From: Bacteriovoracaceae bacterium
GTDB taxonomy: Bacteria; Bdellovibrionota; Bacteriovoracia; Bacteriovoracales; Bacteriovoracaceae
Direction: 5' to 3'
DNA: 24,000 nt
Assembly: GCA_048270185.1 (NCBI GenBank)
Contig: JBLWTJ010000002.1
Coordinates: forward strand, 65,517-89,516
Part shown: piece after piece, positions 3,804-21,386 of the stretch
Numbering within the stretch: the stretch's first letter is position 1
How the letters are laid out: the number at the start of each line of letters is the position of its first letter
Notes under the pieces: model-generated
The model's input: only the letters and a program-made list of their open reading frames with translations
The model's database searches: none
What the model was told of the DNA's origin: nothing
Translations under genes and position numbers: made by a program

Positions 3804-3813
3804 GTATTAACCC

Positions 3814-4044: not shown

Positions 4045-4076
4045 AAGGATTACAATATTCTTTCTTATAATGCCTC

Positions 4077-5999: not shown

Positions 6000-6002
6000 G
6001 GC

Positions 6003-6581: not shown

Positions 6582-6727
6582 ATCGTCCTCCTATAGACTC
6601 ATCATAGAAGAAGCGAATCCAAGAATATGAGACTCTGCACTCAAGACATATATTTATAAGACTTTGAAATTACTTATATATTTCATATTTACTAAATAAC
6701 CGACTCCAGTACTCCGATAAAATCCTT

Positions 6728-7735
6728 ATGAGTTCGACAGTGGAAAAATTCTTTAATGTCATTGAGGCCATCCTTTGTCATAGCAAGGGGCAAATCAGTG
6801 AAGAAGAGCTTAAGAGTGTTCTAGGTGATCCACCAAGATCGACTTGGTTTAAGCATAAGAAAGAACTCATTAATGAGAATTATGGGCTTCTTGATGAAGT
6901 TAAGTCACCAGAAGGTCTGTCCTATTTCTCCCTTAAACCATTTAATAACCAATTTAATTATTTAGAGAAGAGAGAGCTCTATATCATGGAAGCCTATAAG
7001 CACTTAGGCTTCCTTCTTGATGCAAATTTTGATTCCATTAAGTTTCAAAGCTCTCAAGATGTCTCGACAAAAGATTTAAATGAGTTGTCACGTAAGTTCT
7101 TCTATCTTTCAAAGAATCACGCAAAGGATACTTCAAAAGAACAAAAAGAAATTTATGAAAATCTAACGACGTCACTTCTTCAGAATAAAGAAGTCTTCAT
7201 TCACTATCCTTCTGCAAATGATATCGATGGGACAAGACTTCGAAGGGTTCGCCCTCTCACGATTTGCTATCACCTTGATGACCTCTATCTGCTCGCTAAT
7301 GAAGAGAAAATCGTCGATGGAAAAGCGAGTTGGGTTGATCGAAATTTTAAGATGAGTCGAATCAAGTCTCTGACTCTTTCTAATAATAGTTTTAATTATC
7401 CAAGTGCTACTAAGTGGAATCCAAAGAAGGAGTATGAAAATACTAGTGGACTCTATAAGGGTGAAGTCAGGGTGGCCACAGCAAATATCTATGGGGTCCT
7501 GAGAAAGCTCTTAAAAGAGAAGAATATCATCAACTCATCTCTCATTAGTGAGCATGATGACTTTGATACATATGAATTTAAATACACAGATGAAGTCGAG
7601 TTTCTTGGAAAGTTTTTAACCTGGGCCGATTCATTTGAAATTCTATCCCCCTTAACTCTAAAGGATCACTTCATCCAAAAGCTAGAAGCTGCAATAACTT
7701 TAAATAGCTCTAAGAAGCTAAAGAAAGCTGCTTAA
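6728..7735 (+). CDS. WYL-domain transcriptional regulator (HTH-WYL-WCX architecture, BrxR/CapW-like)
   Basis: N-terminal wHTH-like FFNVIEAILCHSKGQISEEELKSVLG. WYL domain at about aa 155-217 (VFIHYPS....GTRLRRVRPLTICYHLDDLYLLA......RNFKMSRIKSLTL). C-terminal FLGKFLTWADSFEILSPLTLKDHF matches the WCX tail. Confidence 0.75.
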   Translation: MSSTVEKFFNVIEAILCHSKGQISEEELKSVLGDPPRSTWFKHKKELINENYGLLDEVKSPEGLSYFSLKPFNNQFNYLEKRELYIMEAYKHLGFLLDANFDSIKFQSSQDVSTKDLNELSRKFFYLSKNHAKDTSKEQKEIYENLTTSLLQNKEVFIHYPSANDIDGTRLRRVRPLTICYHLDDLYLLANEEKIVDGKASWVDRNFKMSRIKSLTLSNNSFNYPSATKWNPKKEYENTSGLYKGEVRVATANIYGVLRKLLKEKNIINSSLISEHDDFDTYEFKYTDEVEFLGKFLTWADSFEILSPLTLKDHFIQKLEAAITLNSSKKLKKAA

Positions 7736-9197
7736 CGAGCTTCTTTGCGACCTTTTGAGAAAGCTTACTTGGCCTACAATTACTCTTGCCCTTATGCTGA
7801 ACGACTTGAAAATCTCGATGAAAGTATTCTCTTCTAATCTCTATTGTCGAGCGCTCTCCTAATACCTCAAGGGATAAGATACGCGAACTTCCTGACTCAA
7901 CTAAGCGATCATAACCATGCGTTCCCACACAGTGATCCATCTCCTTAGTCTCTTGTTCGAGATCAAACCTTGTTAGAAGCTCTCTTAACTCAACCTTCTC
8001 TAGGCTACTCACTGCAGACAAGTCCAGAGGCGTATTAAGCTTTGCATATCGACCTTTAAACTCTTCTGCTTCAATCAGAGACGCTAAGACATTGTACATC
8101 AAGTAAGGATTTATTCTCTGGGCCGGATACTGTTGGCATACATTCTTTAATGTCACAAAGAAGATATCTCCATATGTCTTTATCTGTTTCTTGAAAATAA
8201 AAAGGTCATTAACCAGTTCGTGAAAACATATTTCCGGGCGAGACAAGTAATTAGAAAATTCAAACCGTCCCATATAAGAGCTTACAAAGTTTAACTTCTC
8301 TTTTGAAATGGCCTGTGGAAGAGTTTCTTGAAAACTATCAATACTATAATTTGATTTTTCAACGAGAAATGAAAAGACATCTGGATAGGTCAAGAGATCG
8401 GCCATTCTTCTTACGAGTCCCTTAGGCTTTGAGTGATATAACTGCATACAAAAGTGCATAAGCCTTTTATCATCTTGGATGAGAGGATGAATCTGTCCTA
8501 ATGGCATCTCTTCATTAACTTCACTAATGAGCTCGTTATACCCCGAAATACGCTCTTCACTTCGAACAATCATTCCCATAAAGCACGAACCATAGGCTCC
8601 TTCAAAAGAGGCCATATAAGCTAAGGAGTTAATCTCATGCATGACATTCACATAGCACTCTTCTTCGCTCTTGGCCGACTTTAAGACATTAACTAAGGAC
8701 TTATCAATATCCTCTTTTCTTTGAGGTGTCGCATAGACCTGCTTCTTCTTTTCAAAATCTGCAAATTCTGAGGTAGCTAGAAATTGCCTCGAAAAAATAT
8801 CGTAGGCAATTTGATGAGAGTTGATTGTTGCGCTCTTTATAATCTCATCGATTGGATTTCCCTTTGTCGAAAATGGCTTTATAATCAAACCCTTTTGGCT
8901 ATAAGACCTTAGAAAAACTGTTTCTTTACCGGCTCGATGAAGCTCACTTCGATACGTATGCTTATAAATCGTTAGGGTATCAGGAAGTGTTAACTCTCTT
9001 TTTAGAAATCCCTGATAGATCGTAAAAAGGTCTTCTCCTGTAATAAAAAAGCTAGAAGTTGGATTCTTCATTCGTAAGCGTTGAATATCAAACTGGCCAG
9101 AGAAGATTCTAAGTAGCAGCTTCTCAAACGTCAGAGACTTTGATTGCAGCGTATTCTTTATGTAATTTAATTGTAGATGATCTAAAATCAGTCCCAT
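7710..9197 (-). CDS. PcfJ-like domain protein (C-terminal PcfJ domain, N-terminal 390 aa unknown)
   Basis: The C-terminus LEQETKEMDHCVGTHGYDRLVESGSSRILSLEV.GERSTIEI........VVQHKGKSNCRP matches the PcfJ signature (EG..M.HCV..Y......G...I.SLR......T.E.........Q.rG..N). The 3' end overlaps the WYL gene by 26 nt. Confidence 0.6.
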   Translation of the reverse strand: MGLILDHLQLNYIKNTLQSKSLTFEKLLLRIFSGQFDIQRLRMKNPTSSFFITGEDLFTIYQGFLKRELTLPDTLTIYKHTYRSELHRAGKETVFLRSYSQKGLIIKPFSTKGNPIDEIIKSATINSHQIAYDIFSRQFLATSEFADFEKKKQVYATPQRKEDIDKSLVNVLKSAKSEEECYVNVMHEINSLAYMASFEGAYGSCFMGMIVRSEERISGYNELISEVNEEMPLGQIHPLIQDDKRLMHFCMQLYHSKPKGLVRRMADLLTYPDVFSFLVEKSNYSIDSFQETLPQAISKEKLNFVSSYMGRFEFSNYLSRPEICFHELVNDLFIFKKQIKTYGDIFFVTLKNVCQQYPAQRINPYLMYNVLASLIEAEEFKGRYAKLNTPLDLSAVSSLEKVELRELLTRFDLEQETKEMDHCVGTHGYDRLVESGSSRILSLEVLGERSTIEIRREYFHRDFQVVQHKGKSNCRPSKLSQKVAKKLVKQLSLAS

Positions 9198-9253
9198 GAC
9201 TTACTCCCCCTCTAGCGAATAATAGAGGAAGCACGTCTAGGATATTGAGACTT

Positions 9254-9739
9254 TTAAGCTTTACAGAGAATTGGCCAACCAAACTCTGAGCGAACGACAT
9301 TTTCTACGAATACTCTCAAGGCCTTACTATCATCACTAACGTCAATATAGCCTTCAAGCTTATCCTTGAGGCACTTTTCATAAATGACAGCATATTCATA
9401 ATTAACTTTATATCGACCTAACGCCAAGCAGGCCGTCCCCTTGTAGCCATTTTCAGAGAAGTGGGCATTAAGCCTATTCTTAACATTCTTTGCCATGCCA
9501 AAATAATGAAACTTCTTACTCTCAATATTCTTTAAGCCAGAATTAGCTTTAATGGTATTAGGGATATGCACATGCTTACTTGCCTTAAGAGGATTCTGTT
9601 TTATCTTATTAAGTCCTATAACTTTTATTAGATACCATCCAGGCTTACCTTTGATACTTTCGAAACCATCACTCTTCATTTTCTTGATAGCATCTTCAAC
9701 TTCTTCACGAATTATTGATCTTACTGTATCGAGGCTCAT
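9254..9739 (-). CDS. Small putative GIY-YIG-superfamily nuclease-like protein
   Basis: PGWYLIKV and FHYFGMAKNVKNRLNAHF resemble the GIY...YIG....R..H motifs. The spacing between the two motifs (about 43 aa) is much longer than canonical, so the call is tentative. It lies 56 nt upstream of the PcfJ-like gene on the same strand. Confidence 0.35.
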   Translation of the reverse strand: MSLDTVRSIIREEVEDAIKKMKSDGFESIKGKPGWYLIKVIGLNKIKQNPLKASKHVHIPNTIKANSGLKNIESKKFHYFGMAKNVKNRLNAHFSENGYKGTACLALGRYKVNYEYAVIYEKCLKDKLEGYIDVSDDSKALRVFVENVVRSEFGWPILCKA

Positions 9740-9913
9740 GTTATACTCCCTAGCTGTATTCTTAATAGCTTAACTCTTTAACCACACAATTTATTGTCAT
9801 AATTTTAGAGAACGCCACTATTAGTATATACCCAACAAGCTGTTTTTCCGTACAAAATATATTTCATTTAAAATCTTCCATCTTGACTGACATAAAAAGA
9901 GAGAGATTTAGAA

Positions 9914-11194
9914 ATGAAAGAATACACGCCAAAACACTTCTACACGATTTTTGATCCATTTTTAAAAGCCGAGTTATTCACAAAAGAAAATGAAAAGAAC
10001 ACTCAAGGCCATGAGTTTCAAAGGCAGCTCAAGGAGAAATACCAGAATATGAAAGATGGTGATAACTGCCTTCAGTATATGTACTGGGGAAAGATCTCTG
10101 TCTCTCAAAAGGCTTCTAAATTGGGAACTGAGCTAAATGAGCTTGTTGAAAAAAACAGAAAGCATAATTTTACGACTCACCTATTTATTAGTGACTTCAA
10201 TCACCTCTGGGTCGCAAAGGTTGAAGAAGTATGCTTTGGTGACGATGAAGAGTTCTATGCAAATGCTTTGGACTTCTACCGAGAGTTTCAAGGTAAGGGG
10301 CAAATCGAAGCTTGGTTTAAGATCTCAGATATTGATCTCATTGGAAATAATGCTGAAGAAACTCATCAGTATATTTCTAGTCTTGAAACAATTATCAACT
10401 CGAATAAAGTTTATATCACTCCATACGTCAGTAACTTAAGATACCCTGTCATTGTCAAAGACTTCGCCTGTGTGGAACCAGTCCACTTTGATACATCAAG
10501 GCCACTTGTACTGGAGAACTTAATCGAGAATGAATCCTTCTATGAGAAGATAAAAATGATCATTACAAAGTATAGTATTCCTAAAGAAGAGTTCGAAAAG
10601 CTTAAGCCAACAGTCCAAAAAGAAATCATTCGAACGGAAATGGACTTCTTTGATCAGAAGGCCAAGAATTGGAATAGTCTCTACTTCTCATATTTTAAGG
10701 CCCTTGAGTGGCAGCTCAATCATGTGGTTCTAAACTTCCTTAAGTCAGAGTATAAAGATGGAGAAATTCAAGTTCTTAGAAAGAATAATAATTGTGCGAC
10801 TTTCTACTTTCCTGACAATCCAAATAATCAACCAGGAGATGAATGTATTCCACTAAATGAATACCATGGTAACTTCTCAATCAAGGTTATTATGAATTGT
10901 CTGTTTTCAGGAAGTAATAAGGTCGTCTCAAAGAAAGGTAACCGCCAAGTCTTCTCGGCCCTCCCTGGCCTCTATCAATATGTCTCAGAAGACTTAAAGA
11001 GTTTTCTCAATCTAAATAAAATCGTAGATACCAGAAATATCATTGTTCACAATGATTCATTAGAAGTTACTGAAGCCGACTTTAAAAAGATACGAAATGA
11101 GCTTCTAGGGATCGCAAAGACTGGGATTCTCGTGGAGCTTGCAAATTACACAACTAAGGAACAAAACAAAGCAAGACTCAAGGTTGCGGCTTAA
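9914..11194 (+). CDS. Two-domain protein: unknown N-terminal domain plus a C-terminal HEPN-like (DUF4145/Abi-type) putative RNase domain
   Basis: The canonical HEPN motif R-N-I-I-V-H (Rx4H with polar N after R) lies at 11033-11050, in the context VDTRNIIVHNDSLEVTEADFKKI. This resembles DUF4145 (iRn.gaH....it.eea). An upstream helix FKALEWQLNHVVLNFLK is present. The N-terminal 220 aa have no motif I recognise. Confidence 0.5.
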   Translation: MKEYTPKHFYTIFDPFLKAELFTKENEKNTQGHEFQRQLKEKYQNMKDGDNCLQYMYWGKISVSQKASKLGTELNELVEKNRKHNFTTHLFISDFNHLWVAKVEEVCFGDDEEFYANALDFYREFQGKGQIEAWFKISDIDLIGNNAEETHQYISSLETIINSNKVYITPYVSNLRYPVIVKDFACVEPVHFDTSRPLVLENLIENESFYEKIKMIITKYSIPKEEFEKLKPTVQKEIIRTEMDFFDQKAKNWNSLYFSYFKALEWQLNHVVLNFLKSEYKDGEIQVLRKNNNCATFYFPDNPNNQPGDECIPLNEYHGNFSIKVIMNCLFSGSNKVVSKKGNRQVFSALPGLYQYVSEDLKSFLNLNKIVDTRNIIVHNDSLEVTEADFKKIRNELLGIAKTGILVELANYTTKEQNKARLKVAA

Positions 11195-11300
11195 ATATCT
11201 GTAATCACAAAAGAGACAGAGGTTTGTGCTCAAGTAATTTCGCTTATGGCCCGAAAAGTAAAGATAGCTTGAAAAGTAATAAGAAAATAGGAAAGGATAT

Positions 11301-13028
11301 ATGCCATTACATATCTTAAAAACTTCTCCAAAGCTTGGAGAGAAGAAAGTACTTAAGCATATTGAAGAATTATATAAAGATGTTGAGCGCGATGTTTATG
11401 TCATCAGTGATAATCTTCTAAGTATTGATGAAGGTGTTTCTTTTAAGCCAGACTTTATCATTCTTGATCCAACTTACGGAATTTCAATTATTGAAGTAAA
11501 GAGCTACAAAGAAGATAGTATCGACAAGCTCGATAATTTTACCATCACATTCACTAATGGTGATACCGACTTATCCCCTTTCAAAAAGTGTCAGGACTAT
11601 CGCTTTAAATTATCAGACTATTTAAATGCCAATGAACTAGATATTTCCATGAAGAAGATTAAAACACTTCTCGTCTTCACAAATATCAAAGAAGACCTAT
11701 TTAGAGAATATGACTATGTGGAGTCTCACTATAAGAACTTTCAAGAAACTTTAAATCTTGAAACTCTATTTCCACAAACACCTATTCAAAAGAAGAAGAT
11801 AAACGATATCTACATGGCCATGAATCCAGTTATGTACTTTAATATTGAAACACAGGACACCGCCAGTTCATCATTTGATAAATTAGATGAAGACCAGCTC
11901 GACTTTGTAAAAAAGCCAATTGGTGGCCACTACCTAATCTCAGGAATTCCAGGAAGTGGTAAATCCGTCGCTGTTGTCTCTCGTGCAATCTATATCGCCA
12001 ATGAGAAGCCTGATTGGAAAATCCTCGTCCTTTCTGAAAATAAGTTTTTAAAAGAGAAGAATGAGAAGGCCATTAGAGAGCGCACAAAGAATTTTAATAA
12101 GCTTGGAAACGATACTGAGAATAATATCGTCTGCATGACCTTAATGAAGCTTCTCACAGACACTTCACCAGAAGAAGCTGACAAGTTTATGAAGTATCCT
12201 GACAAGGTCGACTTTCTAACCAATGCCATTCTTGATTCTGAAATTGTCGCGAAGTATGACGCCGTCTTAATCGATGAGTACCAAGACTTCTCAGATGATC
12301 ATATACGCATTGCAAAGCTTGTCACTAAGAAGAAATCAACAATTATTAATAATGAAGAAAGGCTCATTGAAAATATCTTTCTATCTGGAGACCGATTACA
12401 AAAGGTTAAAGAAAAAGGCAGTTCAGGAAATTGGATTGATATTGGTATTGAAATTTCAGGGCGCAGTAAGAAGCTAAAAGGAAGCTATCGCTGTGGACGA
12501 GAGATTATCGACATCGCCTTAAGCTTTTTAAAGTCTGCCGGAAAAGTCGTAAAAGACGAAGTTGAATCCTACTACGAAGGAACTGATACTATTGAGTATC
12601 TTGGAGACTTAACAGGAAGCTTCTCGACCTTCACAGGTTGGGATGATCTTGGAGTTGCAAAGATTCACAATTGGGTCAATGCACTAACCTCAAAAGGTGT
12701 TCCTCCATCTGATATCTTAATTATCACACCTAATAATACAACCTTGGTTAATAAACTTAAGAAAGCATTTCACAATGAAGTCTCAGAAGGCCTACTCATT
12801 GGAATGCCAAGTAATATCAAAGGCCTTGAAGCAGGTCACTGCGCTATCTATAACTTTGATAGCATTGGTTACCATTCATCTTCACAGTCAAATAAGTATA
12901 AGCAAATCTACATGTGCTTAACGAGGGCCAGATCAAGTATCTTCATCAACTGCTGGAAGGCCGGCAATGAAGACTTTGAGAAGCTTGAAGAAATTATCGC
13001 ATCAAAGACAGATTTTGAAGCGGCTTAG
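11301..13028 (+). CDS. NERD nuclease-related domain fused to a UvrD/Rep-like SF1 helicase
   Basis: NERD: GEKKVLKHIEEL....VYVISDNLL.....FKPDFIILDPTYGISIIEVKSYK. Walker A GIPGSGKS (11943-11966). Motif II VLIDEYQDFS (DEYQD at 12273-12287). Motif IV-like LKGSYRCGREI. KGLEAGH is present. Motif VI YMCLTRARSSIFI. AGGAAAGGA SD. Confidence 0.85.
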   Translation: MPLHILKTSPKLGEKKVLKHIEELYKDVERDVYVISDNLLSIDEGVSFKPDFIILDPTYGISIIEVKSYKEDSIDKLDNFTITFTNGDTDLSPFKKCQDYRFKLSDYLNANELDISMKKIKTLLVFTNIKEDLFREYDYVESHYKNFQETLNLETLFPQTPIQKKKINDIYMAMNPVMYFNIETQDTASSSFDKLDEDQLDFVKKPIGGHYLISGIPGSGKSVAVVSRAIYIANEKPDWKILVLSENKFLKEKNEKAIRERTKNFNKLGNDTENNIVCMTLMKLLTDTSPEEADKFMKYPDKVDFLTNAILDSEIVAKYDAVLIDEYQDFSDDHIRIAKLVTKKKSTIINNEERLIENIFLSGDRLQKVKEKGSSGNWIDIGIEISGRSKKLKGSYRCGREIIDIALSFLKSAGKVVKDEVESYYEGTDTIEYLGDLTGSFSTFTGWDDLGVAKIHNWVNALTSKGVPPSDILIITPNNTTLVNKLKKAFHNEVSEGLLIGMPSNIKGLEAGHCAIYNFDSIGYHSSSQSNKYKQIYMCLTRARSSIFINCWKAGNEDFEKLEEIIASKTDFEAA

Positions 13029-13044
13029 TAACTAGTTTAGAAGT

Positions 13045-13650
13045 TTAGACAAAGTACTTCTTATAGTGCTCTAGACGGTAGTCATAAGTTGGCTTCTTCC
13101 CTGTATATGAAAGTTTCCAATTCTTATACTCTGCATTTCGCCCAATGCCTCGCGAAGCCTGCCCAGACGGTGAAATCAAAACAACTTCAACAACCTGTCC
13201 GACTACATTCGGCTTAATATTTTCACAAAACCAATCTCTTACCTGCTGTGAAGTAAAATAGATTTTTTCGATTTTATTCTCATTAATAATATTCGCAAGT
13301 CCGTGATTCCAAGTTTGCTCATGAAGATCTGCATCTGATGCACTCCCCTTGTGACGCTGGCATGAGTGAATAACATCAGAGATACCGATATTTCGTGCAC
13401 TCAACTCTTCCTTAATCGCTTCCTTACTTGTAAGCTTTCGTCCGAAGCAATCCCCTAATAATCGCCAAAGAAGATTCTGATTTCCACCATAGTAGAAGTT
13501 AACCTCACCTTCATTGATCTCATCACTTCTTTCAGGATTCGTGAACTTTCCAATGGGAAATGATCCGACAATAAGCTTACGACATCCTTCTGGAATATAG
13601 TCGCCAAATGGATGAACCTCTACTGGCCCTAAATCTAGTTTCTTACTCAT
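13045..13650 (-). CDS. Uracil-DNA glycosylase superfamily protein (hypoxanthine/deoxyinosine-DNA glycosylase-like, family 6-like)
   Basis: KLIVGSFPIGKF.....NFYYGGNQNLLWRLLGDCFG matches the LiLGSFPS....YY.hp.N.FW.ll motif. ISDVIHSCQRHKGSASDADL matches the second motif (D....c.r.gS.D..i). GGAGG SD 5 nt upstream. Confidence 0.7.
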   Translation of the reverse strand: MSKKLDLGPVEVHPFGDYIPEGCRKLIVGSFPIGKFTNPERSDEINEGEVNFYYGGNQNLLWRLLGDCFGRKLTSKEAIKEELSARNIGISDVIHSCQRHKGSASDADLHEQTWNHGLANIINENKIEKIYFTSQQVRDWFCENIKPNVVGQVVEVVLISPSGQASRGIGRNAEYKNWKLSYTGKKPTYDYRLEHYKKYFV

Positions 13651-13674
13651 TCATTCCTCCGAAAACTATCACTA

Positions 13675-13860
13675 TTATAACTTAAATATATCAAATGATA
13701 CTAATCGATAGATTTTATTATAGATAAACCTCTTAGGTGACCTAAGCCATCCCCATCCCCTTGGCATCTTAATTCCAAGGCCATGAACTGCCCTTCTCCT
13801 AATGGATGTCCTAGCTGATATCCTCTTTTTCAATGAAAACTTTCTTGCGCCAAACTTCAT
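13675..13860 (-). CDS. 61-aa highly basic small protein (MKFGARKFSLKKRISARTSIRRR...)
   Basis: The start is reassigned to ATG 13860, preceded by AAGGGAGA at 6-7 nt. The longer track ORF to 13956 has no SD. The sequence KKRISARTS..RR......G.K.PRGWGW...PKR..YNK.Y resembles a recurrent small basic module I recall from prophage and accessory regions. It lies 24 nt upstream of the glycosylase gene. Confidence 0.5.
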   Translation of the reverse strand: MKFGARKFSLKKRISARTSIRRRAVHGLGIKMPRGWGWLRSPKRFIYNKIYRLVSFDIFKL

Positions 13861-13979
13861 GAGTGATCTCCCTTTTTTAGAGTATAGACAATGGAGGTCT
13901 CGGATTGTGAGACAAAAGTCATGCATAATACAATAACTAAACACTAAATAAAACACCCTTATTAACCGATAGGATTGCT

Positions 13980-15977
13980 ATGAAGTATTTAACAAAGTCT
14001 AAGTTCAAGCTAGGTCTCGAATGTCCTACAAAGCTCTACTATAACGAAGATAAAGAGTACGCTAACGCCAATCTAGATGACCCATTTCTTGCGGCTTTAG
14101 CAAAGGGAGGCTTTCAAGTTGGAGAACTTGCAAAGTGTTACTATCCTGAAGGTTTTGATATCGTTGAGTTAGACTATGAAACTTCAACATCTAAAACGAG
14201 CAAACTCATGGAAGCTCAAGATGTCACAATCTTTGAAGCAGCAATCCAATACAAGAACCTCTTTGTAAGAGTTGATATTTTAGAAAAGGTTGGAAATACC
14301 ATCAACCTGATCGAAGTAAAATCAAAATCAGTTGACCCTGGTCAATTTGAAGACCAGCTCTGGAGTAAAACTGCGGCGAAAAAGGGAGAGCAAAAGCTTC
14401 TCTCAACATGGAAGTCCTATATTTATGACGTGGCCTTCCAAGCCTATGTCTTAAAAAAGGCCTTCCCAAATATGACGATCAATAGCCATCTCATGTGCGC
14501 AGACAAATCAACGATTGCCACAGTCGATGGCCTCAATCAGAAGTTTGTTCTTAAAGAAGAAAATGGACGAAGCTACGCTGAGGTCAATGGCGACATCAGT
14601 CCAGACGCCCTTGGCGAAGAGATCCTTTGTAAAATCCCTCTTAACGAGGTCGTTGAAATTATTCATAGTGAAAATGAGATGAGTGAACGCTTCAACGGAC
14701 TTGGGTTTGAAGCAGCAATTTGGCAATTTGCTGACTCCCTTACTCAAGGAGAGAAGATTGAATCAGTGGTTTCTTCAAAGTGCAAGAATTGTGAATTTAG
14801 AGCAAGTGAAGAAGGCAAGAAATCAGGGTTTAATGAATGTTGGTCCCTCGCTCATGGCCTCTCACAAGAAGAACTCGAACAGCCTCTTGTCTTTGATGTT
14901 TGGAATTTTCGAGGTGGAGACAAAGCGCTTGAAAGTGGCAAAGTCCTACTTGAAGACCTCGATGCTACCGATATAAAAACAAACCCAAGAAAAGACGGTA
15001 TCGGACTCTCAAATGGAGAGCGCCAGCTTCTGCAAGTCGAGAAAGTTAAAGACCATGATGACACATCCTTTATTGATATCGAAGGACTTGCATTAGAAAT
15101 GAACACATGGAACTACCCTCTTCATATGATCGATTTTGAAACATGTATGGTGGCAATTCCCTTTAATAAAGGACAGGCACCGTATGAGCAAATTGCCTTT
15201 CAATTCAGTCATCATATCATTCATGAAGATGGTAAGATCGAACATGCAAATGAGTATATCAATGCAACTCAAGGCTTCCACCCAAACTTTGAGTTTGTCA
15301 GACGTCTAAGAGATGCCCTTGGCGACAAAGGTTCGATCTTTCGCTACTCAAACCATGAGAACACAGTACTCTGCCAAATTAGACAGCAACTTCTTGATTC
15401 TGAGGAAAGCGATGCTGATGAGTTAATCAAATTCATCGAAACAATAACAAATAAGAAATCTGGAAAAGAATATGCCTGGAAGGGAGATCGCGACATGATT
15501 GACCTTTGTGAGATGGTTAAGAAGTACTACTACTCACCACTTACCAATGGCTCTAATTCAATCAAGTACGTACTACCTGCAATCCTAAATGAATCCAACT
15601 TCATTCAAGAAAAGTATTCTAAGCCAATCTACGGTAAAGGCCATGAGATCGAATCTAAGAATTTTGACTCGCATACTTGGATCTCACTAGACGAGAGCGG
15701 CGATGTCATTAACCCATATAAGACACTTCCACCAGTATTTGATAATTATGACTACGATGAACTTGAATTAGTTGGTGAGAATGATATTGCAAATGGTGGA
15801 GCGGCCCTTACAGCATATGCCATGATGCAATTCACTCATATGTCAGATATCGAGCGAGAGAAAGTAAAGTCAGCGCTTCTTCGCTATTGTGAATTAGATA
15901 CCCTCGCGATGGTTATGATTTGGGAGCATTGGAATCATTTAATTACGGAGTCTCAAACAGAGAGAGAGGCATCATAA
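13980..15977 (+). CDS. DUF2779 family protein: N-terminal Cas4-like PD-(D/E)XK nuclease plus C-terminal RNase H-like/DEDD-type exonuclease fold
   Basis: The N-terminus LTKSKFKLGLECPTKLYY is typical of DUF2779. D99...E112-V-K114 (VRVDILEKVGNTINLIEVKS, 14274-14321). Cys cluster C15 plus CKNCEF...ECW. The C-domain opens with MIDFETCMVAIPF....APYEQIAFQFSHH (DFE at about 15132-15140). Confidence 0.75.
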   Translation: MKYLTKSKFKLGLECPTKLYYNEDKEYANANLDDPFLAALAKGGFQVGELAKCYYPEGFDIVELDYETSTSKTSKLMEAQDVTIFEAAIQYKNLFVRVDILEKVGNTINLIEVKSKSVDPGQFEDQLWSKTAAKKGEQKLLSTWKSYIYDVAFQAYVLKKAFPNMTINSHLMCADKSTIATVDGLNQKFVLKEENGRSYAEVNGDISPDALGEEILCKIPLNEVVEIIHSENEMSERFNGLGFEAAIWQFADSLTQGEKIESVVSSKCKNCEFRASEEGKKSGFNECWSLAHGLSQEELEQPLVFDVWNFRGGDKALESGKVLLEDLDATDIKTNPRKDGIGLSNGERQLLQVEKVKDHDDTSFIDIEGLALEMNTWNYPLHMIDFETCMVAIPFNKGQAPYEQIAFQFSHHIIHEDGKIEHANEYINATQGFHPNFEFVRRLRDALGDKGSIFRYSNHENTVLCQIRQQLLDSEESDADELIKFIETITNKKSGKEYAWKGDRDMIDLCEMVKKYYYSPLTNGSNSIKYVLPAILNESNFIQEKYSKPIYGKGHEIESKNFDSHTWISLDESGDVINPYKTLPPVFDNYDYDELELVGENDIANGGAALTAYAMMQFTHMSDIEREKVKSALLRYCELDTLAMVMIWEHWNHLITESQTEREAS

Positions 15978-16015
15978 GATAAGAATGAAGAAGTCTCTAA
16001 AAAAGGTAAACTGCT

Positions 16016-17290
16016 TTAAGCTGCAATTGAATTACTTTTGATGACCTTCTCTACACTAACAGAATCTATTTTATCGATTAACCTCAGAAAATCGGTATAC
16101 TTGTGTATTAACTCTAGAGTCTCATAAAGATTTTCCATCGTTTTTGGAGATGCAAGTCGTCGTTTATTTCCTAGATAGCTCTTTGGATCACTAAGTATTC
16201 CACGGTATACATTCAAGGCCATCACTTCAAGAAAATTTATAATTTGGTCTCTTGGAATTTTTGAAGGAACGAGAATTCGCTTAAAGCTTCTCTTTCCATG
16301 ATATTCATCTTCGATAATGAATGATAAATCACTATCAAGCTTGAGCTTCAGTTTCTTAGCATGGTGCCTAGGAGGAGTAATTATTAAAGTTTTACTTCTT
16401 AAGGATTCTCTCGATTTTGGGTGTAAAGTCCATTGTCCTGGTACATCATCACTTTTTAAACGATTGAGGGACTCTGTGAAGCACTCACCGAAACTCCAAA
16501 GAATATCTAACTTTGCCTCATGAATAATATCATTATTACTACCATTCTTATCAAGGCGTATATTATTGAGAGCATTTAAAAACTCTAAGACATTTATTAA
16601 ATTCTTTACTCGTTTATTCTTAGTAGGATTTTTAAGATTTAATGAGTGTAGTATTTCAAGAATATCCTTAGTCCAAGACAATTGAACCCAATACTTTGCT
16701 TCAATTCCATCCTTGCCTGAATCGTGTGCTTTAGGAGGAACACCAAGCAAAGTTAAATAAACATACTCCTGGTACTTCTCACGATAAAATACTTCATTAA
16801 AATATTTACGATAATAATATAATTGATCTTTGTGATTATGAGTAAATAGTTTATTTTCTACGACGAGTGTAAAACTATCCTTCTTATCTAAGTCTAGAAG
16901 GACTATATCGCACTGTCCATACTTATCCTTTGAATTGACGGCCCCCAATGGAAACTCTCTTATGACACCTGCATTAGTAATCCCGCGCGCTAGATCACTA
17001 ACTGACTTTCGAGATGAATTTGTACGATGCTTTCTTAAAACTAACTTATTCTTCTTAGACTTTAGTCCGTTAGCTTCCTCAGCTCTATTCGCTGCAATTT
17101 TAGTAATAAACTTTTTTGGGAAGGAACTACCAAAATAGCTCTTTTCTCTCGAATCCAGTAAGGCCGCAAACATATTCGAAAACCACTCTTCACTCATTGA
17201 AAAGTGAATCAAGTCCTGCCAATCTTTGTGATCTTTAGAAATTTTATCAAAAATAGCTTTTAACTTACTGAGATTACGTTGAGTCGTCAT
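16016..17290 (-). CDS. PD-(D/E)XK nuclease superfamily protein (PDDEXK_4-like)
   Basis: EEWFSNMFAALLDSRE...FG..F..KFI and QCDIVLLDLDKKDSFTLVVENKLFTHNHKDQLYYYRKY match the family pattern (E..hS.fla.LLdp ... riDi.i.....iviENKi.a.e...QL.rY). Strong AAGGAGG SD. Confidence 0.7.
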   Translation of the reverse strand: MTTQRNLSKLKAIFDKISKDHKDWQDLIHFSMSEEWFSNMFAALLDSREKSYFGSSFPKKFITKIAANRAEEANGLKSKKNKLVLRKHRTNSSRKSVSDLARGITNAGVIREFPLGAVNSKDKYGQCDIVLLDLDKKDSFTLVVENKLFTHNHKDQLYYYRKYFNEVFYREKYQEYVYLTLLGVPPKAHDSGKDGIEAKYWVQLSWTKDILEILHSLNLKNPTKNKRVKNLINVLEFLNALNNIRLDKNGSNNDIIHEAKLDILWSFGECFTESLNRLKSDDVPGQWTLHPKSRESLRSKTLIITPPRHHAKKLKLKLDSDLSFIIEDEYHGKRSFKRILVPSKIPRDQIINFLEVMALNVYRGILSDPKSYLGNKRRLASPKTMENLYETLELIHKYTDFLRLIDKIDSVSVEKVIKSNSIAA

Positions 17291-17326
17291 ACCTCCTTAT
17301 CGGTATGACTAAATAAAAGTTAAGTG

Positions 17327-17887
17327 CTACCCCAGAATTAAGTTTAACCATCTCTCATCACGATCAGGCCTCTTATCCTCGGTAATCCAATCTTTCTCTA
17401 TCCTCAGATTCGAAGGCAAAAACTCTTTAATCGTCTCAAGAGTTTGATCATTGAAGAAGCGACCATTCCTCTCCCCTTCATGCTCTCCATATTTGAAAGA
17501 ACAGTAAAAGACCGCATCGTCATTCATAAGGTTTGATATTTTTAATAAGACATCTTTAAGTTCGTTTGAGGGCACATGTAACAGAGAAGCACATGCCCAG
17601 ATTCCATCAAATTTAGAATCAAGACTTACTTCCTGAAGTGTTCCGAGATGAACAACACAACCACTGTGAGAACGAGCAAATTGCGCGAGTTTCTCACTTG
17701 GTTCAAGACCTATAGCTTCATATCCATGATCTTTAAAATACTTGAGATCTCGTCCCGGGCCACAGCCGATGTCTAAGATCAATCCGCCATCCTTTACGTT
17801 TTCGAGAAATGGTTTGTAAAGATGTGACAGGTCTAAATCTAGAGTTGAATCAATGAATTCTTGGTTATTCTTATCGTAGTAATTCAT
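17327..17887 (-). CDS. Class I SAM-dependent methyltransferase (small-molecule/Methyltransf_11-25 type)
   Basis: Motif I LILDIGCGPGRD, then an acidic post-I residue (GLE). There is no (D/N/S)PP(Y/F/W) DNA-MTase motif. It lies 36 nt upstream of the PDDEXK_4 gene on the same strand. Confidence 0.8.
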   Translation of the reverse strand: MNYYDKNNQEFIDSTLDLDLSHLYKPFLENVKDGGLILDIGCGPGRDLKYFKDHGYEAIGLEPSEKLAQFARSHSGCVVHLGTLQEVSLDSKFDGIWACASLLHVPSNELKDVLLKISNLMNDDAVFYCSFKYGEHEGERNGRFFNDQTLETIKEFLPSNLRIEKDWITEDKRPDRDERWLNLILG

Positions 17888-17948
17888 AATACTAGATTAC
17901 TCGAAATTTATAATCGCATCAAATCTATTTAGACGATATAATATCTCC

Positions 17949-18857
17949 ATGATCGAAGATTTTATCCAATGGTACGACAATATTAATAAGGCACGTGCAA
18001 AAGACTATTATGCGCCTCACAAGCCAATAACAATCCTATATGCACTTGTCAAAGCAGCGAAAAATGTACGCTGGATTGAATTCAATAGAGATCGTGAAGA
18101 GCTTGAGTCTATTATTAGTGAGTTTACTAAGTATTCAACAAGGCCAAATTGTCTTCAGCCTCTTTGGCGACTTACAAATGACTCTAAAGCAATGCCTTAT
18201 TGGACAACACAGCCTGCTAATATTGTTTTAAACAATAAAGGTGATATCCCTACTGGAACAGCAAAAGAGATTAATTTTAAAGCTGGCTTTAGTGACGAGA
18301 TCTATAACAAGCTTAAAAATAATAAAGCTCACATACATGCTCTCATTCGCTATATAACTGAAGACAACTTCCCGGACAGTCTCCATGAAACACTTTGGGA
18401 GCTACTTGGTGTCTTTGACCTAGAAGCTCAAGCTCCTTCAGAAGAAACTATCACGACAACAGTGACAAAAGTGAAGAGAGATCCAAAGTTTCCAAAACTT
18501 ATTCTGTCCCTCTATGGTAACCAATGTGCTTGCTGTGGATTAAAGATTAACTTCAAAAATAACACCGCTCTATCAATGGAAGCTGCTCATATCAAGTGGA
18601 AAGCTCGCGGTGGAGACTGTAATGAGTACAATGGCCTAGCCCTATGTCCAACTCACCACTACACTTTTGATCGTGGTATCTGGACACTTAACTCTGATTA
18701 TAGAATTGAACTTAGTGACTCAATTTTAATTGACCGCAAAAATGACACTTTCTTTACACCCTATATTGGTAAATCTATTGGAAGGTTTATTCTAAATGAG
18801 GAGTTACTACCGAGTGCAGGGAATATTGAGTGGCATAGGAAGAATATTTTGAAATAA
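17949..18857 (+). CDS. HNH endonuclease with an N-terminal ScoMcrA-SBD-like DNA-modification-reader domain (putative type IV restriction enzyme)
   Basis: HNH_2-type motif CACCGL......MEAAHIKW......D...NGLALCPTHHYTFDRGIW. The N-terminal YYAPHKPITILYAL......I.F and CLQPLWRLTNDSK resemble the aPHKPllLL.......pfwrL..Dg pattern of phosphorothioate-sensing SBD-HNH enzymes. Confidence 0.6.
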   Translation: MIEDFIQWYDNINKARAKDYYAPHKPITILYALVKAAKNVRWIEFNRDREELESIISEFTKYSTRPNCLQPLWRLTNDSKAMPYWTTQPANIVLNNKGDIPTGTAKEINFKAGFSDEIYNKLKNNKAHIHALIRYITEDNFPDSLHETLWELLGVFDLEAQAPSEETITTTVTKVKRDPKFPKLILSLYGNQCACCGLKINFKNNTALSMEAAHIKWKARGGDCNEYNGLALCPTHHYTFDRGIWTLNSDYRIELSDSILIDRKNDTFFTPYIGKSIGRFILNEELLPSAGNIEWHRKNILK

Positions 18858-18858
18858 T

Positions 18859-19887
18859 TTAGTTAAACTCATGAAGAAATGAGTCTCCTATTTTATGTAT
18901 ATGTACAGTCCTCTCATACCCAAGCCTTAATTCATGAACTTTAACAACGATACAATTAAACATAAGTCTAGCATCTATAATATTAAAGTGATGACAGGTG
19001 TTCTTTGCAAGAGGATTACTGCTTCGTATTTGATTGTAGTAACCTTCTAATATTTTAACTTGCAGCTTCTCAAATACCAAAAACTGCAGCGGAGAATGCC
19101 AGCCAGACTGAATACAAGAACTCGTTAAAGATGATATCTGTTCCAAACTAGAGTCTACAACATAACTTCTCTCTATTTTTTCTACATCTTTTCTTTTTCT
19201 AACCACTTTCTTAATTCTTATATAGCGCTTAGATAAGTCGGAATGCACTTCATACAAAATATCCTTTAGTCCGCCTCTGATTTTTGTCTTTTCTATAAAA
19301 TTCACTTTAGAAACAGCATATAAATAGTGGTCCCCATGTATAACTGCCAAATAAAACACCTTGTTTGCTTCTTCCTCTTCTTCACTTCTAAAATCAATGA
19401 AGATTGGTTTATTTGATTTTTTCCAGTTTCTAAGGACTCTTAGATTAAAATCCTTCAGATCAATCACTTTTTCTTTAAGTTGGCTACACACTATGCTTAG
19501 ATCAGATTGACATCGACTTCCATCAACAATCCAGACCATATTATGATAAAACTTCTCTCTTGCATGAATCTCTTCCTCATCTAATCGAGAATGTTGTATT
19601 TCTATAAAGAAACCATCTGGCCTTTTAACATCTGCTATATGCTTTTCGCCATTTGCATCGAAATGTACAACCTCTTGCCATTCTTCATCATAATGATTCT
19701 TCCAAGCTCTATGCCATTCACTTTCTCGTTCCCACCAATCATCACATTCGTTTTTTGCTTTATGAGCCCAATGCCAGGCCATAATTTTTCCACATTTGGC
19801 TATGAGTTCAGATTTACAATAAGAACAAACTCCTTTTAGCTTCGGGAGCGCTTCAGATTTTATTCCATCAACAAGTCCGAATTTCAT
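18859..19887 (-). CDS. CoiA-like family nuclease-fold protein with an unknown C-terminal 210 aa
   Basis: Zinc-ribbon-like CSYCKSELIAKCGKIMAWHWAHK, then ESEWHRAWKN and KHIADVKRPDGFFIEIQHSRLDEEEIHAREKFY..MVWIVDG. These match the CoiA pattern (C..C......G....HFaH....E...H...K.......rADv......iEfQ.S.is.eei..R...Y....iWi). Its ATG overlaps the upstream TAA (TAATG). Confidence 0.65.
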   Translation of the reverse strand: MKFGLVDGIKSEALPKLKGVCSYCKSELIAKCGKIMAWHWAHKAKNECDDWWERESEWHRAWKNHYDEEWQEVVHFDANGEKHIADVKRPDGFFIEIQHSRLDEEEIHAREKFYHNMVWIVDGSRCQSDLSIVCSQLKEKVIDLKDFNLRVLRNWKKSNKPIFIDFRSEEEEEANKVFYLAVIHGDHYLYAVSKVNFIEKTKIRGGLKDILYEVHSDLSKRYIRIKKVVRKRKDVEKIERSYVVDSSLEQISSLTSSCIQSGWHSPLQFLVFEKLQVKILEGYYNQIRSSNPLAKNTCHHFNIIDARLMFNCIVVKVHELRLGYERTVHIHKIGDSFLHEFN

Positions 19888-20546
19888 TATTCGCTCGTTT
19901 TTAAAACTTTTATTAGTCTTCGAGCTTTTCCAGACTTCTGAATAATATCCATTTTAGGCTCTTTATACCCTATTCTTCCTGCAACACGCTCTAAAGTAAG
20001 ATTTGTCTCACCCAACTCTAGATACTCATTACTTGAGTTTTTACTAGTGTGAATGACACTTATTTTCACAAAATCTTTCTGACTATCTACTTCGACAATA
20101 TGATCGAGCTTTATATCTACTATCTGTTTAAAGATAGAATTCCATCGTTTACTATTTTCAATATAAAATTGTGTAAAAGATTTATAATTTCGAAACGGAG
20201 GATAATTACTTTTATATAAAGAGAAATCCGAGAATAATGCGGTATAAAATGGTTCACCTAACTTATAACTATCAGGTAGTGAATCTGAAATACATTGTAG
20301 ATCATCTCTACGATTATTGATCTCAGAATCATCAATCATGACTATGATATCGGCTTCTTCTAGTCGACTTATAGGAAACCGTACATCTGCAAGCATCGAG
20401 TTTTTTGACTTATAACCAAAATACGCCGCCACTAGCTCATGAGCATGAGCTGCTTTTAACTTAATATCGTAATTTTCTTTAGTGAATGAGCGCAGTGAAT
20501 CTGCACATTTTTTTGAAATCTCTTGAATAGACATCTTAAACTCCAT
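19887..20546 (-). CDS. Hypothetical protein with no recognisable domain
   Basis: The ORF has two candidate starts: ATG 20546, or ATG 20534 (MSIQEIS) preceded by GGAG at 6 nt. Its stop is translationally coupled to the CoiA-like gene by a 1-nt TAATG overlap at 19887. Confidence 0.55.
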   Translation of the reverse strand: MEFKMSIQEISKKCADSLRSFTKENYDIKLKAAHAHELVAAYFGYKSKNSMLADVRFPISRLEEADIIVMIDDSEINNRRDDLQCISDSLPDSYKLGEPFYTALFSDFSLYKSNYPPFRNYKSFTQFYIENSKRWNSIFKQIVDIKLDHIVEVDSQKDFVKISVIHTSKNSSNEYLELGETNLTLERVAGRIGYKEPKMDIIQKSGKARRLIKVLKTSE

Positions 20547-20566
20547 TAAACGAGCTGGACTTAAAT

Positions 20567-20596
20567 TTAGTTGTTATGTGCGTTCAATACAACTAA
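20567..20596. promoter_or_regulatory. Inverted repeat in the divergent intergenic region, a possible operator
   Basis: TTAGTTGT (20567-20574) and ACAACTAA (20589-20596) are perfect 8 bp arms separated by 14 nt. The repeat lies 21 nt upstream of the ATG at 20546. A second small palindrome, CCTTG-GAT-CAAGG, sits at 20685-20697. Confidence 0.35.
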
Positions 20597-20770
20597 GCCA
20601 GCAATTTAATAAAGTATAAAAGTGCTTCTTAGAGTTTATATAACTATCGTCTTTTCGGGCGCACACACCTGAGGCAAATCGACTCCTTGGATCAAGGTAT
20701 CTGATTCATATAAGATGAGCAAGTTAATTTTTTACTAACCGCTAGTACATATAATGGTGGACGTTCGACA

Positions 20771-21229
20771 ATGCTAGACGAACTCTGCGACTACGCGAAT
20801 TATGTGCCTGTTATCATTACTCATTTCTTCAACAAACCCATTCAAAATTCGGAACTTTTGCGGAAACTGTACTTAGAAAAAGACCTTTCTAGCTATGAAA
20901 TTTCAAAATTAACAGGCTGGCCTCGCTCTTCAATAAGTGATGCAACTCGTGCCCTTGGATTCAAAAAAGAAGAAGTGAAAGCACCTACTCTTCGCTTCGG
21001 TGAAAAGCTTATTGGGACTACGCGTGTAGTTCATAAAGGAGAACAAAAGGTAATTGAAAAGATGATTTCCCTTCGAGAGAAAGGTTATTCATTCAAGCGA
21101 ATCTCTGAATACTTAAACGATAAAAACATACCAACTAAACTCGGAGGGTCATGGTACCCATCTACAGTAAAAGACATTGTTAAGCGAGAGCTTAAGAAAA
21201 GGGAGGCATATCATGCGTGCGATAATTGA
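20771..21229 (+). CDS. HTH plus serine-recombinase 'Recombinase' DNA-binding domain protein lacking the catalytic resolvase domain
   Basis: LSSYEISKLTGWPRSSISDATRALG is HTH-like. GEQKVIEKMISLREKGYSFKRISEYLNDKNIPTKLGGSWYPSTVKDIV matches the Recombinase domain pattern (..vv..if.l...G.s...ia..Ln..gi.t..gg.W....v..il). There is no Ser-catalytic N-domain and no room for one upstream, because an in-frame stop lies at 20711-20713. Confidence 0.6.
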   Translation: MLDELCDYANYVPVIITHFFNKPIQNSELLRKLYLEKDLSSYEISKLTGWPRSSISDATRALGFKKEEVKAPTLRFGEKLIGTTRVVHKGEQKVIEKMISLREKGYSFKRISEYLNDKNIPTKLGGSWYPSTVKDIVKRELKKREAYHACDN

Positions 21230-21377
21230 GATAATTCTTGCGATAATTTTTACAGTGATTTCAGGAACCACGGTTTTGAATCTTTCAAGTAAGGCCATAA
21301 AAAAGGAAGCCATCATTAAAGTTCATATGGGACTTCCTTCGTTAGAGAGCTTTACTAAAAAGATGACGAAGAAATAG
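21213..21377 (+). CDS. 54-aa small single-TM protein
   Basis: ATG 21213 lies 6 nt after GGGAGG (21201-21206). The N-terminal TM is MRAIIEIILAIIFTVISGTTVL. It overlaps the 3' end of the upstream gene by 17 nt. The longer track start at 21177 has no SD. Confidence 0.45.
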   Translation: MRAIIEIILAIIFTVISGTTVLNLSSKAIKKEAIIKVHMGLPSLESFTKKMTKK

Positions 21378-21386
21378 CCTCAAAAG

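Follow-up and report, generated by a model that had tools for sequence, protein, structure and literature searches.

We examined a 24,000-nt stretch of a Bacteriovoracaceae genome (contig JBLWTJ010000002.1; hereafter, the window), concentrating on the block of genes between a lipoprotein-like gene of 192 aa (positions 6003 to 6581) and an operon that starts at position 21387. The left flank also includes an ExbB-like gene and a gene for a PEGA-domain protein (4446 to 5999), and the right-hand operon encodes a membrane protein, a DUF1971 protein, and a fused RND/OEP protein, in agreement with the envelope genes and the efflux/DUF1971 operon placed there by a preliminary description of this DNA. 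That description had counted 16 genes in at least eight transcription units between the flanks. We recovered nine strand-runs (+; − −; + +; − −; +; − −; +; − −; +) but 14 confident open reading frames (ORFs), together with a possible hydrophobic ORF of 66 aa (21177 to 21377, plus strand; ORF scan, unverified). Comparison with relatives divided the region into conserved anchors and two adjacent variable segments, slot 1 (9256 to 13705; blastn breakpoints) and slot 2 (13917 to ~21100; tblastn and blastn). The anchors are the PEGA, lipoprotein, WYL, and PcfJ-like genes on the left; the gene for a 61-aa protein, with a palindrome in its promoter, in the middle; and a recombinase-domain gene, whose 3′ end the 66-aa ORF overlaps, on the right.

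Three relatives were informative in these blastn and tblastn comparisons: Halobacteriovorax sp. DPLXC-1; ERZ893900 (L003), a 195-kb ENA metagenome contig; and a closer strain represented by a Logan contig from SRR19664650 (L007). We assign the window to a Halobacteriovorax chromosome because its PEGA protein shares 82% identity with the DPLXC-1 protein (77% with the ERZ893900 protein). A colinear block (4446 to 9255) aligned with DPLXC-1 at 76% and with ERZ893900 at 75% nucleotide identity (blastn), and homology was lost at ~9211 to 9255, 15 to 60 nt upstream of the PcfJ-like start codon. Within this block, the lipoprotein is 95% identical in DPLXC-1 and 96% in ERZ893900. A WYL/WCX transcription regulator (6728 to 7735, plus strand; Pfam WYL, E = 5.6e-6; PADLOC WYL, E = 6.4e-17) is syntenic in the same two relatives (81% and 79% amino acid identity, respectively), and a PcfJ-like protein (7710 to 9197, minus strand; Pfam PcfJ, E = 2.7e-6, 27.7 bits against a cutoff of 25) has orthologs that are 74% and 72% identical. 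Because these two genes are conserved as well as the flanking envelope genes, we place them (6728 to 9197, the left 2.6 kb) in the backbone, with variability beginning at ~9255. The preliminary description had recognized the WYL gene, and the domain was confirmed, but it had drawn a defense-type accessory block from position 6582 onward with this gene at its edge; a variable defense region is indeed present in the relatives, whereas its leftmost 2.6 kb, including WYL, are backbone rather than cargo. Neither the PcfJ-like gene nor the conserved 61-aa gene had been named. The WYL protein is a plausible local regulator. The convergent 3′ ends of the WYL and PcfJ-like genes overlap by 26 nt (7710 to 7735), an arrangement kept in both relatives. 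No plasmid homologs of the PcfJ-like protein were found. No matches came from genome collections queried with the PEGA protein or a PcfJ-like alignment, nor from metagenomes queried with that alignment or a degenerate DNA pattern of the 61-aa gene; exact-sequence searches for the PEGA and DUF1971 proteins were also negative.

The 61-aa gene (13675 to 13860, minus strand) is present in all three relatives, at 75 to 81% nucleotide identity in DPLXC-1 and ERZ893900 and ~95% in L007. Homology to the two more distant relatives resumed over this gene only (13706 to 13916), which places the slot 1 breakpoint inside its 3′ end. Slot 1 of the window holds GIY-like, HP0729-like, NERD-UvrD, and UDG-like genes. 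In DPLXC-1 and ERZ893900, the same slot holds unrelated genes directly downstream of the small gene: a 305-aa gene, mkoB (PLD nuclease), and mkoA (helicase), which make up a type I Mokosh system (PADLOC; MkoA, 1.5e-112; MkoB, 2.8e-33). A Mokosh assignment within the window was rejected, with an MkoA match of 0.0054 only. The closer relative, L007, has slot 1 in common with the window (94.7% identical over 10873 to 13916) and diverges completely at 13916; its slot 2 encodes a 79-aa protein, a 280-aa protein, a Ppl-like 912-aa ATPase (4.8e-29), and PDC-S57 (2.8e-44; both by PADLOC). Slot 2 of DPLXC-1 contains an FtsJ-like methyltransferase followed by ordinary genes (trypsin-like, LysR, and flavodoxin). 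That of ERZ893900 looks nearly empty: ~180 nt precede a 39-nt stretch left over from the recombinase-domain gene (95% identical), and then come an old-yellow-enzyme-like gene (as read by eye from its translation) and the contig end. No gene of the window's slot 2 was present in any relative. In three of three comparisons, slot 2 homology ended at 13901 to 13916, the outer edge of a palindrome, GTCTC-N7-GAGAC, in the promoter of the small gene (13897 to 13913; GTCTCGGATTGTGAGAC). This palindrome, examined in a four-genome alignment, occurs once (0.08 occurrences expected by chance) and may serve as an operator or mark a breakpoint of recombination. Thus, a single position, checked at the left flank and the middle anchor, carries different cargo in relatives at 75 to 95% nucleotide identity, and this cargo is rich in defense genes both in the window and in the relatives (Mokosh type I, Ppl-like, PDC-S57).

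The slot 1 cargo of the window begins with a 161-aa, weakly GIY-YIG-like protein (9254 to 9739, minus strand; Pfam GIY-YIG, E = 5.3e-4; GIY_YIG_2, E = 6.7e-3; both below cutoff), for which PADLOC, NCBIfam, and PHROG gave no match. It is followed by an HP0729-family protein (9914 to 11194, plus strand; NCBIfam HP0729_fam, E = 1.2e-17, below cutoff) with an N-terminal PUA-like region (Pua-like, E = 2.6e-5; 24.5 bits against a cutoff of 27) and a C-terminal HEPN-like region (HEPN_RiboL-PSP, E = 0.0013; HEPN_Apea, E = 0.061; both subthreshold) that carries an RNIIVH (Rx4H) motif. No PDB sequence match and no plasmid homologs were found for this protein, and its single-sequence AlphaFold (AF2) model was too low in confidence for use (pLDDT, 33.8). 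The third gene encodes a NERD nuclease fused to a UvrD-type superfamily 1 helicase (11301 to 13028, plus strand; Pfam NERD, 2e-8; UvrD-helicase, 2.3e-8), with Walker A GIPGSGKS, motif II DEYQD, and nuclease motif D..EVK; the L007 copy is 99% identical. On a Nostoc plasmid, a homologous NERD-helicase gene adjoins a type III-B cmr module, and on E. coli plasmids such genes adjoin RelE/ParE. A Gabija assignment was rejected, since the GajB matches on NERD-UvrD were weak (best, 1.8e-8) and GajA was absent. The fourth protein is UDG superfamily glycosylase-like (13045 to 13650, minus strand; TIGR04274, E = 6.3e-11, 42.6 bits against a cutoff of 80), with GSFP and SPSGQA motifs; its nearest family, at this subcutoff level, is the family 6 hypoxanthine-DNA glycosylases, and PDB entry 2l3f matched weakly (E = 0.0097). 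The gene is co-oriented with the 61-aa gene and lies 24 nt downstream of it. Brig1 and Brig2 are UDG-fold DNA glycosylases with experimentally demonstrated antiphage activity (PMC11078745; bioRxiv 10.1101/2025.10.29.685425). The window protein resembles them in being a small, stand-alone putative member of the UDG superfamily, here in a variable, defense-rich locus, and differs in that its gene is cotranscribed with the 61-aa gene; the likeness would be one of fold family.

Slot 2 opens with a Cas4-like PD-(D/E)XK nuclease fused to DUF2779 (13980 to 15977, plus strand; Pfam DUF2779, 2.1e-25; PADLOC Cas4, E = 0.0011 over residues 74 to 123), which has a D..EVK motif and a Cys cluster and no PDB sequence match. 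On the opposite strand lies a PDDEXK_4 nuclease (16016 to 17290; Pfam PDDEXK_4, 6.3e-19); on a Tenacibaculum plasmid, a homolog has HigA, DUF4065, and integrase genes as its neighbors. In a common operon with the window's PDDEXK_4 gene, upstream, is a class I S-adenosylmethionine (SAM) methyltransferase of 186 aa (17327 to 17887, minus strand; Pfam Methyltransf_25, 2.5e-11; motif I, ILDIGCGPG). The preliminary description had missed this enzyme, although its statement that no DNA-methyltransferase motif is present holds: motif IV, (D/N/S)PP(Y/F), is absent from the protein, and the PADLOC MTase_II profile gave E = 0.0062 only. Because the sole methyltransferase lacks motif IV, classical restriction-modification (R-M) of type I, II, or III was rejected. 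We also rejected MADS, of which we found only the C-terminal part of the mad2 methyltransferase (PADLOC, 4.3e-16) and a marginal mad8 match on the helicase (2.4e-4).

Next in slot 2 is a predicted SBD-HNH phosphorothioate-DNA-dependent type IV restriction endonuclease (17949 to 18857, plus strand). The protein matched NCBIfam NF045808 (1e-53) at 182.3 bits against a cutoff of 180, over residues 7 to 302 and profile positions 5 to 284 of 284, and the HNH_2 family at 6.4e-8; its catalytic and zinc-binding motif is intact (CACCG..AAHI..NGLALCPTHH). In the PDB, it matched the TagI HNH domain (1.7e-5) and the SBD region of ScoMcrA (0.0031). The sulfur pocket does not appear to be fully conserved, since in this weak ScoMcrA alignment HKP replaces HRP and QPLW replaces YPFW. 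Like ScoMcrA and SprMcrA (NF045808; PDB 5zmm), the protein has an SBD-like region at the N terminus and an HNH domain (CxxC..H..N..CPxHH) at the C terminus; it differs in its length of 302 aa, in lacking SRA and head domains, and in lying 2 bits above the cutoff. No dnd or ssp modification genes were present in the window. By its family match, this gene is a complete known single-gene system, the one member of a characterized family in the window. The preliminary description was therefore wrong to state that the block contains no complete canonical system, because a single-gene SBD-HNH enzyme is one.

Downstream lies a two-gene operon on the minus strand. Its first gene encodes a 219-aa protein (19887 to 20546) with no match in Pfam, PADLOC, NCBIfam, or PHROGs, and it is translationally coupled through a TAATG overlap at 19887 to a gene for a CoiA-like nuclease (18859 to 19887; CoiA_N, 4.2e-9; CoiA_nuc, 0.0053). 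The N-terminal ~200 aa of the latter form the CoiA part, followed by a unique 140-aa tail; plasmid homologs are 38 to 48% identical (E, ~1e-40), and no PDB sequence match was found. On Roseovarius plasmid pTHAF8_b (1 to 5702), an operon that encodes an ATP-dependent helicase, multiubiquitin, ThiF (E1), and DUF6527 ends with a gene for a CoiA-family nuclease. This arrangement suggests that CoiA-like domains may serve as effectors of ubiquitin-like conflict systems. Together with the NERD-UvrD, Cas4-like/DUF2779, and PDDEXK_4 proteins, the CoiA-like protein is a predicted nuclease of the PD-(D/E)XK type, with catalytic motifs that are intact by sequence across the four (D..EVK, D..ENK, D..EIQ).

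At the right edge, a gene on the plus strand (20771 to 21229) encodes a helix-turn-helix domain and part of the "Recombinase" domain found in large serine recombinases (Pfam Recombinase, 1.3e-9, profile positions 3 to 52 of 102; phrog_95 integrase, positions 243 to 311 of 651). The catalytic resolvase domain is absent by Pfam, so the protein is, as had been described, a catalytically dead recombinase-domain protein. Part of this gene (21103 to 21141) is 95% identical over 39 nt to noncoding ERZ893900 sequence beside the small gene (208 to 246), where backbone identity is only 75%. These observations could point to slot 2 (13.9 to 21.2 kb) being a decayed integrative element, that is, one old insertion by a large serine recombinase of which only a DNA-binding fragment is left: the fragment sits at the right edge, and a piece of its gene lies at the corresponding place in ERZ893900. 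We consider this unlikely. No direct or inverted repeats flank slot 2; tRNA, phage, and conjugation genes are lacking; and slot 2 has the composition of the backbone. At this junction, moreover, L007 and DPLXC-1 hold yet other contents, of a third and a fourth kind, which repeated exchange would explain better than a single insertion. A prophage assignment was likewise rejected, as Pfam and PHROG scans found no phage genes.

A different explanation would see in the block a lineage-specific clustering of paralogs (UvrD, UDG, RecB/Cas4-like, CoiA) that serve housekeeping DNA repair and have no role in defense. UvrD-like, UDG-like, and PD-(D/E)XK domains do occur in repair enzymes, and the composition of the block is core-like. 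This explanation is very improbable: the block is missing from relatives, which carry recognized defense systems in its place; no protein reaches a curated repair-equivalog cutoff; the SBD-HNH restriction model is passed; and homologs lie on plasmids in defense, toxin-antitoxin, or CRISPR contexts. Among the eight nucleic acid enzymes proposed in the preliminary description, NERD-UvrD, UDG-like, Cas4-like/DUF2779, PDDEXK_4, SBD-HNH, and CoiA-like are solid, whereas the GIY-YIG-like and HEPN-like calls are weak. PADLOC recognized PDC-S26, the NERD+UvrD model, and WYL in the window, and it found no cas, CBASS, retron, TIR, or SIR2 components, as had been noted. The further claim that textbook systems do not explain the block holds for most genes, which match no characterized system, but not for SBD-HNH, which is a known system, nor entirely for the genes that match the PDC-S26 and NERD+UvrD models.

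Taken together, these results lead us to read the region from 9.26 to 21.1 kb, with a probability of about 0.8, as a Halobacteriovorax defense-gene hotspot: two adjacent variable slots between conserved anchors, whose cargo is exchanged and is mainly modification dependent. Exchange has probably occurred within the lineage through recombination, whether homologous or illegitimate, at the anchors or close to them and would not have been driven by a self-mobile element. Judging from the domains, the cargo would consist of independent one- or two-gene modules that target nucleic acids: SBD-HNH; the pair of methyltransferase and PDDEXK_4 nuclease (PDC-S26); NERD-UvrD; the PUA-like/HEPN-like protein; the UDG-like protein cotranscribed with the small protein; Cas4-like/DUF2779; and the 219-aa protein with its CoiA-like partner. 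SBD-HNH would cut phosphorothioated invader DNA, the UDG-like protein may excise a modified base in the manner of Brig1 and Brig2, and the PUA-like/HEPN-like protein may act as an RNase upon recognizing a modified base. The island is most likely modification dependent in the main (type IV-like), attacking invader DNA or RNA with marks absent from the host, because it has no DNA methyltransferase and three putative readers of modified nucleic acids (SBD, PUA-like, and UDG-like).

Several observations weigh against this interpretation. The modification theme rests on three domain calls, two of them weak (PUA-like, 24.5 against 27 bits; UDG-like, 42.6 against 80 bits), and the GIY-YIG, HEPN, and PUA-like matches are all subthreshold. 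SBD-HNH alone reaches a curated cutoff of a validated defense system. The sample is small, with three informative relatives and no right-hand junction in any of them: DPLXC-1 lacks the efflux operon (no close ortholog), and the ERZ893900 contig ends there. One further related contig that contains the efflux operon ends ~300 nt past the membrane-protein gene. The window contains no tRNA genes, no att repeats or significant direct or inverted repeats, and no intact integrase, the recombinase fragment without its catalytic domain being all that was found; nor did family scans (Pfam, PHROGs) find phage or conjugation genes in it. Comparison of segments by GC content and tetranucleotides gave no composition signal for an island. 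GC content is 33 to 42% along the whole window and is nearly the same in backbone (0.372), slot 1 (0.368), and slot 2 (0.369), and tetranucleotide correlations across segments are 0.93 to 0.96, so that slot composition is core-like and cargo cannot be separated from backbone. The units suspected of being AT rich do have lower GC content (PDDEXK_4, 0.342; CoiA-like, 0.345; 219-aa gene, 0.326) than the region at 12 to 13 kb (0.385), but all values lie within the backbone range (0.316 to 0.424). The preliminary description had taken conservation in place together with core-like composition as the outcome that would speak against an island. Composition is core-like and conservation in place was not found; the island reading survives because both were needed to refute it and only the first holds.

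Defense hotspots flanked by core genes are known in Pseudomonas aeruginosa, as are integration hotspots in E. coli. The locus studied here resembles them in its fixed position, conserved flank markers, strain-specific defense systems, and mix of known and unknown genes. It differs in its host, a predatory, Bdellovibrio-like marine bacterium; in having two slots split by a tiny conserved gene; and in showing neither compositional deviation nor an intact mobility gene. The type of locus, a core-flanked defense hotspot, is therefore already known and not categorically new. Its contents, as classified by family matches, are one characterized family, two PADLOC candidate families, and about five modules without a validated counterpart. 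The two candidates, PDC-S26 and "NERD+UvrD" (C3a187), are matched at the domain level in the window (1.5e-15 and 2.1e-29, respectively); to our knowledge, both are candidates without experimental validation. In the window, the PDDEXK_4 gene of the PDC-S26 match is preceded by the SAM methyltransferase gene, a pairing absent from the one homolog context that we checked.

Sequences around the locus showed further features. The hexamer CCGATA lies 13 to 14 nt before the ATG of the SNase-like gene (3468; so called because a homolog carries an SNase annotation), WYL (6728), DUF2779 (13980), and PDDEXK_4 (17290), and ACGATA lies at −15 before SBD-HNH (17949), mostly with a TAAA-like element ~15 nt further upstream. 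These elements look like sigma-28/FliA-type promoters that would produce nearly leaderless mRNAs; promoters of this type are reported for Bdellovibrio attack-phase genes. A sigma-70 promoter scan was at chance level (51 against 47), as was a terminator scan (10 against 9.4), and no Rfam family matched in the window. Beyond the anchors, flavodoxin_2 and a 96-aa gene occupy opposite sides in the two genomes: left of the PEGA gene in the window (12 to 462 and 3580 to 3789) and right of the hotspot in DPLXC-1 (locus L006, 6317 to 6767 and 4422 to 4631), and the window has an extra ExbB-like gene and 96-aa gene (3513 to 4436) between the SNase-like and PEGA genes. By gene order, the wider neighborhood is plastic and has been rearranged between strains. 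On the right, the C terminus of the RND permease and the OEP outer-membrane factor share one ORF (22076 to 23995, minus strand), an apparent fusion that is also seen in a JGI protein (P0007), whereas GCA_030591685.1 has two separate genes.

The protein of the middle anchor (MKFGARKFSLKKRISARTSIRRRAVHGLGIKMPRGWGWLRSPKRFIYNKIYRLVSFDIFKL) is very basic and had no match in Pfam, NCBIfam, PADLOC, or the PDB, by profile as well, and only PHROG matches of unknown function. We nevertheless collected 449 homologs, among them 67-aa proteins that are 66 to 75% identical in Clostridium, Brevibacillus, Paenibacillus, Bacillaceae, and the archaeon Methanolobus. Clustering at 50% identity gave 490 clusters, in which the domain often forms the N-terminal 60 residues of longer unannotated proteins; in ten such proteins, TPR repeats were the sole Pfam matches. 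It is thus an unannotated family, ~70% identical across bacterial phyla and an archaeon. In all 8 of the 8 contigs with visible neighbors, the gene for one Firmicutes homolog (P0132) is flanked by hsdS and hsdR within a type I R-M operon, and in temperate phages of Brevibacillus and Paenibacillus, the protein is encoded in the accessory (moron) region beside the lysis genes. Here, the gene is immediately upstream of the UDG-like gene, and in the relatives, it is immediately upstream of mkoA-mkoB. AlphaFold, given an alignment of 50 sequences, produced a basic helical hairpin of low confidence (pLDDT, 66.7). Our leading guess is that the small protein is a conserved partner or regulator of DNA-targeting defense enzymes. 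Strong conservation in a mobile small protein usually signals an important, as-yet-unrecognized interaction.

A second recurrent feature is a C-terminal Ala-Ala, found in 4 of the 14 window proteins: WYL (..KKAA), HP0729-like (..KVAA), NERD-UvrD (..FEAA), and PDDEXK_4 (..SIAA), with the codons at 7727 to 7735, 11186 to 11194, 13020 to 13028, and 16016 to 16024, respectively. In the relatives, MkoB ends in ..SAA, MkoA in ..AVA or ..VGA, and the PcfJ-like protein in ..LAS. Ala accounts for 4.8% of codons, so Ala-Ala is expected at 0.23% of termini, and 4 of 14 has a P value of ~3e-8; none of the ~40 nonhotspot ORFs of at least 120 aa in five Halobacteriovorax loci ends this way, nor do distant homologs from E. 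coli, Nostoc, and Tenacibaculum. Because overlapping opposite strands encode them, the C termini of the WYL and PcfJ-like proteins are not mutually independent. At the DNA level, the motif GCNGCTTAR occurs five times (~0.9 expected), four of these at stop codons of island genes; an integron-like or other cassette array, put together through site-specific recombination between copies of a short common site, might leave such a pattern. The absence of intI and of attC-like imperfect inverted repeats, the alternation of genes between strands, and breakpoints (~9255, ~13700, and 13916) that do not match the motif positions effectively refute such an array. The mkoB gene of ERZ893900, moreover, ends GCT GCA TAG, and the constraint therefore appears to act on the Ala-Ala peptide and not on the DNA.

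An unbiased screen in E. coli found that 91% of its 100 strongest C-terminal degrons ended in Ala-Ala; these were ClpXP dependent, LVA-type tags were strong too, and LAS was weaker. The tails described here resemble the ssrA-like (C-motif-1) ClpXP degron in their terminal Ala-Ala (or xVA, GA, or LAS) after Lys or hydrophobic residues. They differ in being genome encoded on five unrelated defense-type proteins and in the residues that precede Ala-Ala (KK, KV, KS, FE, and SI instead of the optimal Leu). Given the Ala-Ala enrichment, the constraint at the peptide level, and the E. coli screen, it is reasonable to hypothesize that autotoxic immune proteins carry an encoded ssrA-like degron. The tails may have been gained convergently by WYL, the PUA/HEPN-like protein, NERD-UvrD, PDDEXK_4, and MkoB, whereas MkoA and the PcfJ-like protein would have weaker forms (VA, GA, or LAS). 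The joint proposition, that an ssrA-like Ala-Ala gate acts on Halobacteriovorax defense proteins and, separately, that the 61- to 67-aa protein is a cross-phylum accessory subunit or regulator of DNA-targeting defense enzymes, is possible, if doubtful.

New immune systems are sought mainly in defense hotspots, and the hotspot described here lies in a little-studied predatory lineage; a paper search found no literature on Halobacteriovorax defense systems. Further cargo can be collected from other Halobacteriovorax genomes by means of its precisely located anchors, which are the promoter of the PcfJ-like gene, the 61-aa gene and its palindrome, and the recombinase-domain gene, and about six nuclease modules are nominated as candidates for experiments. 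If the degron hypothesis is true, autotoxic immune enzymes would be held at low levels by ClpXP-type proteolysis and would accumulate when proteolysis is saturated or blocked in infection, and the Ala-Ala tails would constitute a host-level, posttranslational gate over the whole defense island. The tails thereby suggest a general route by which a host may restrain autotoxic immunity.

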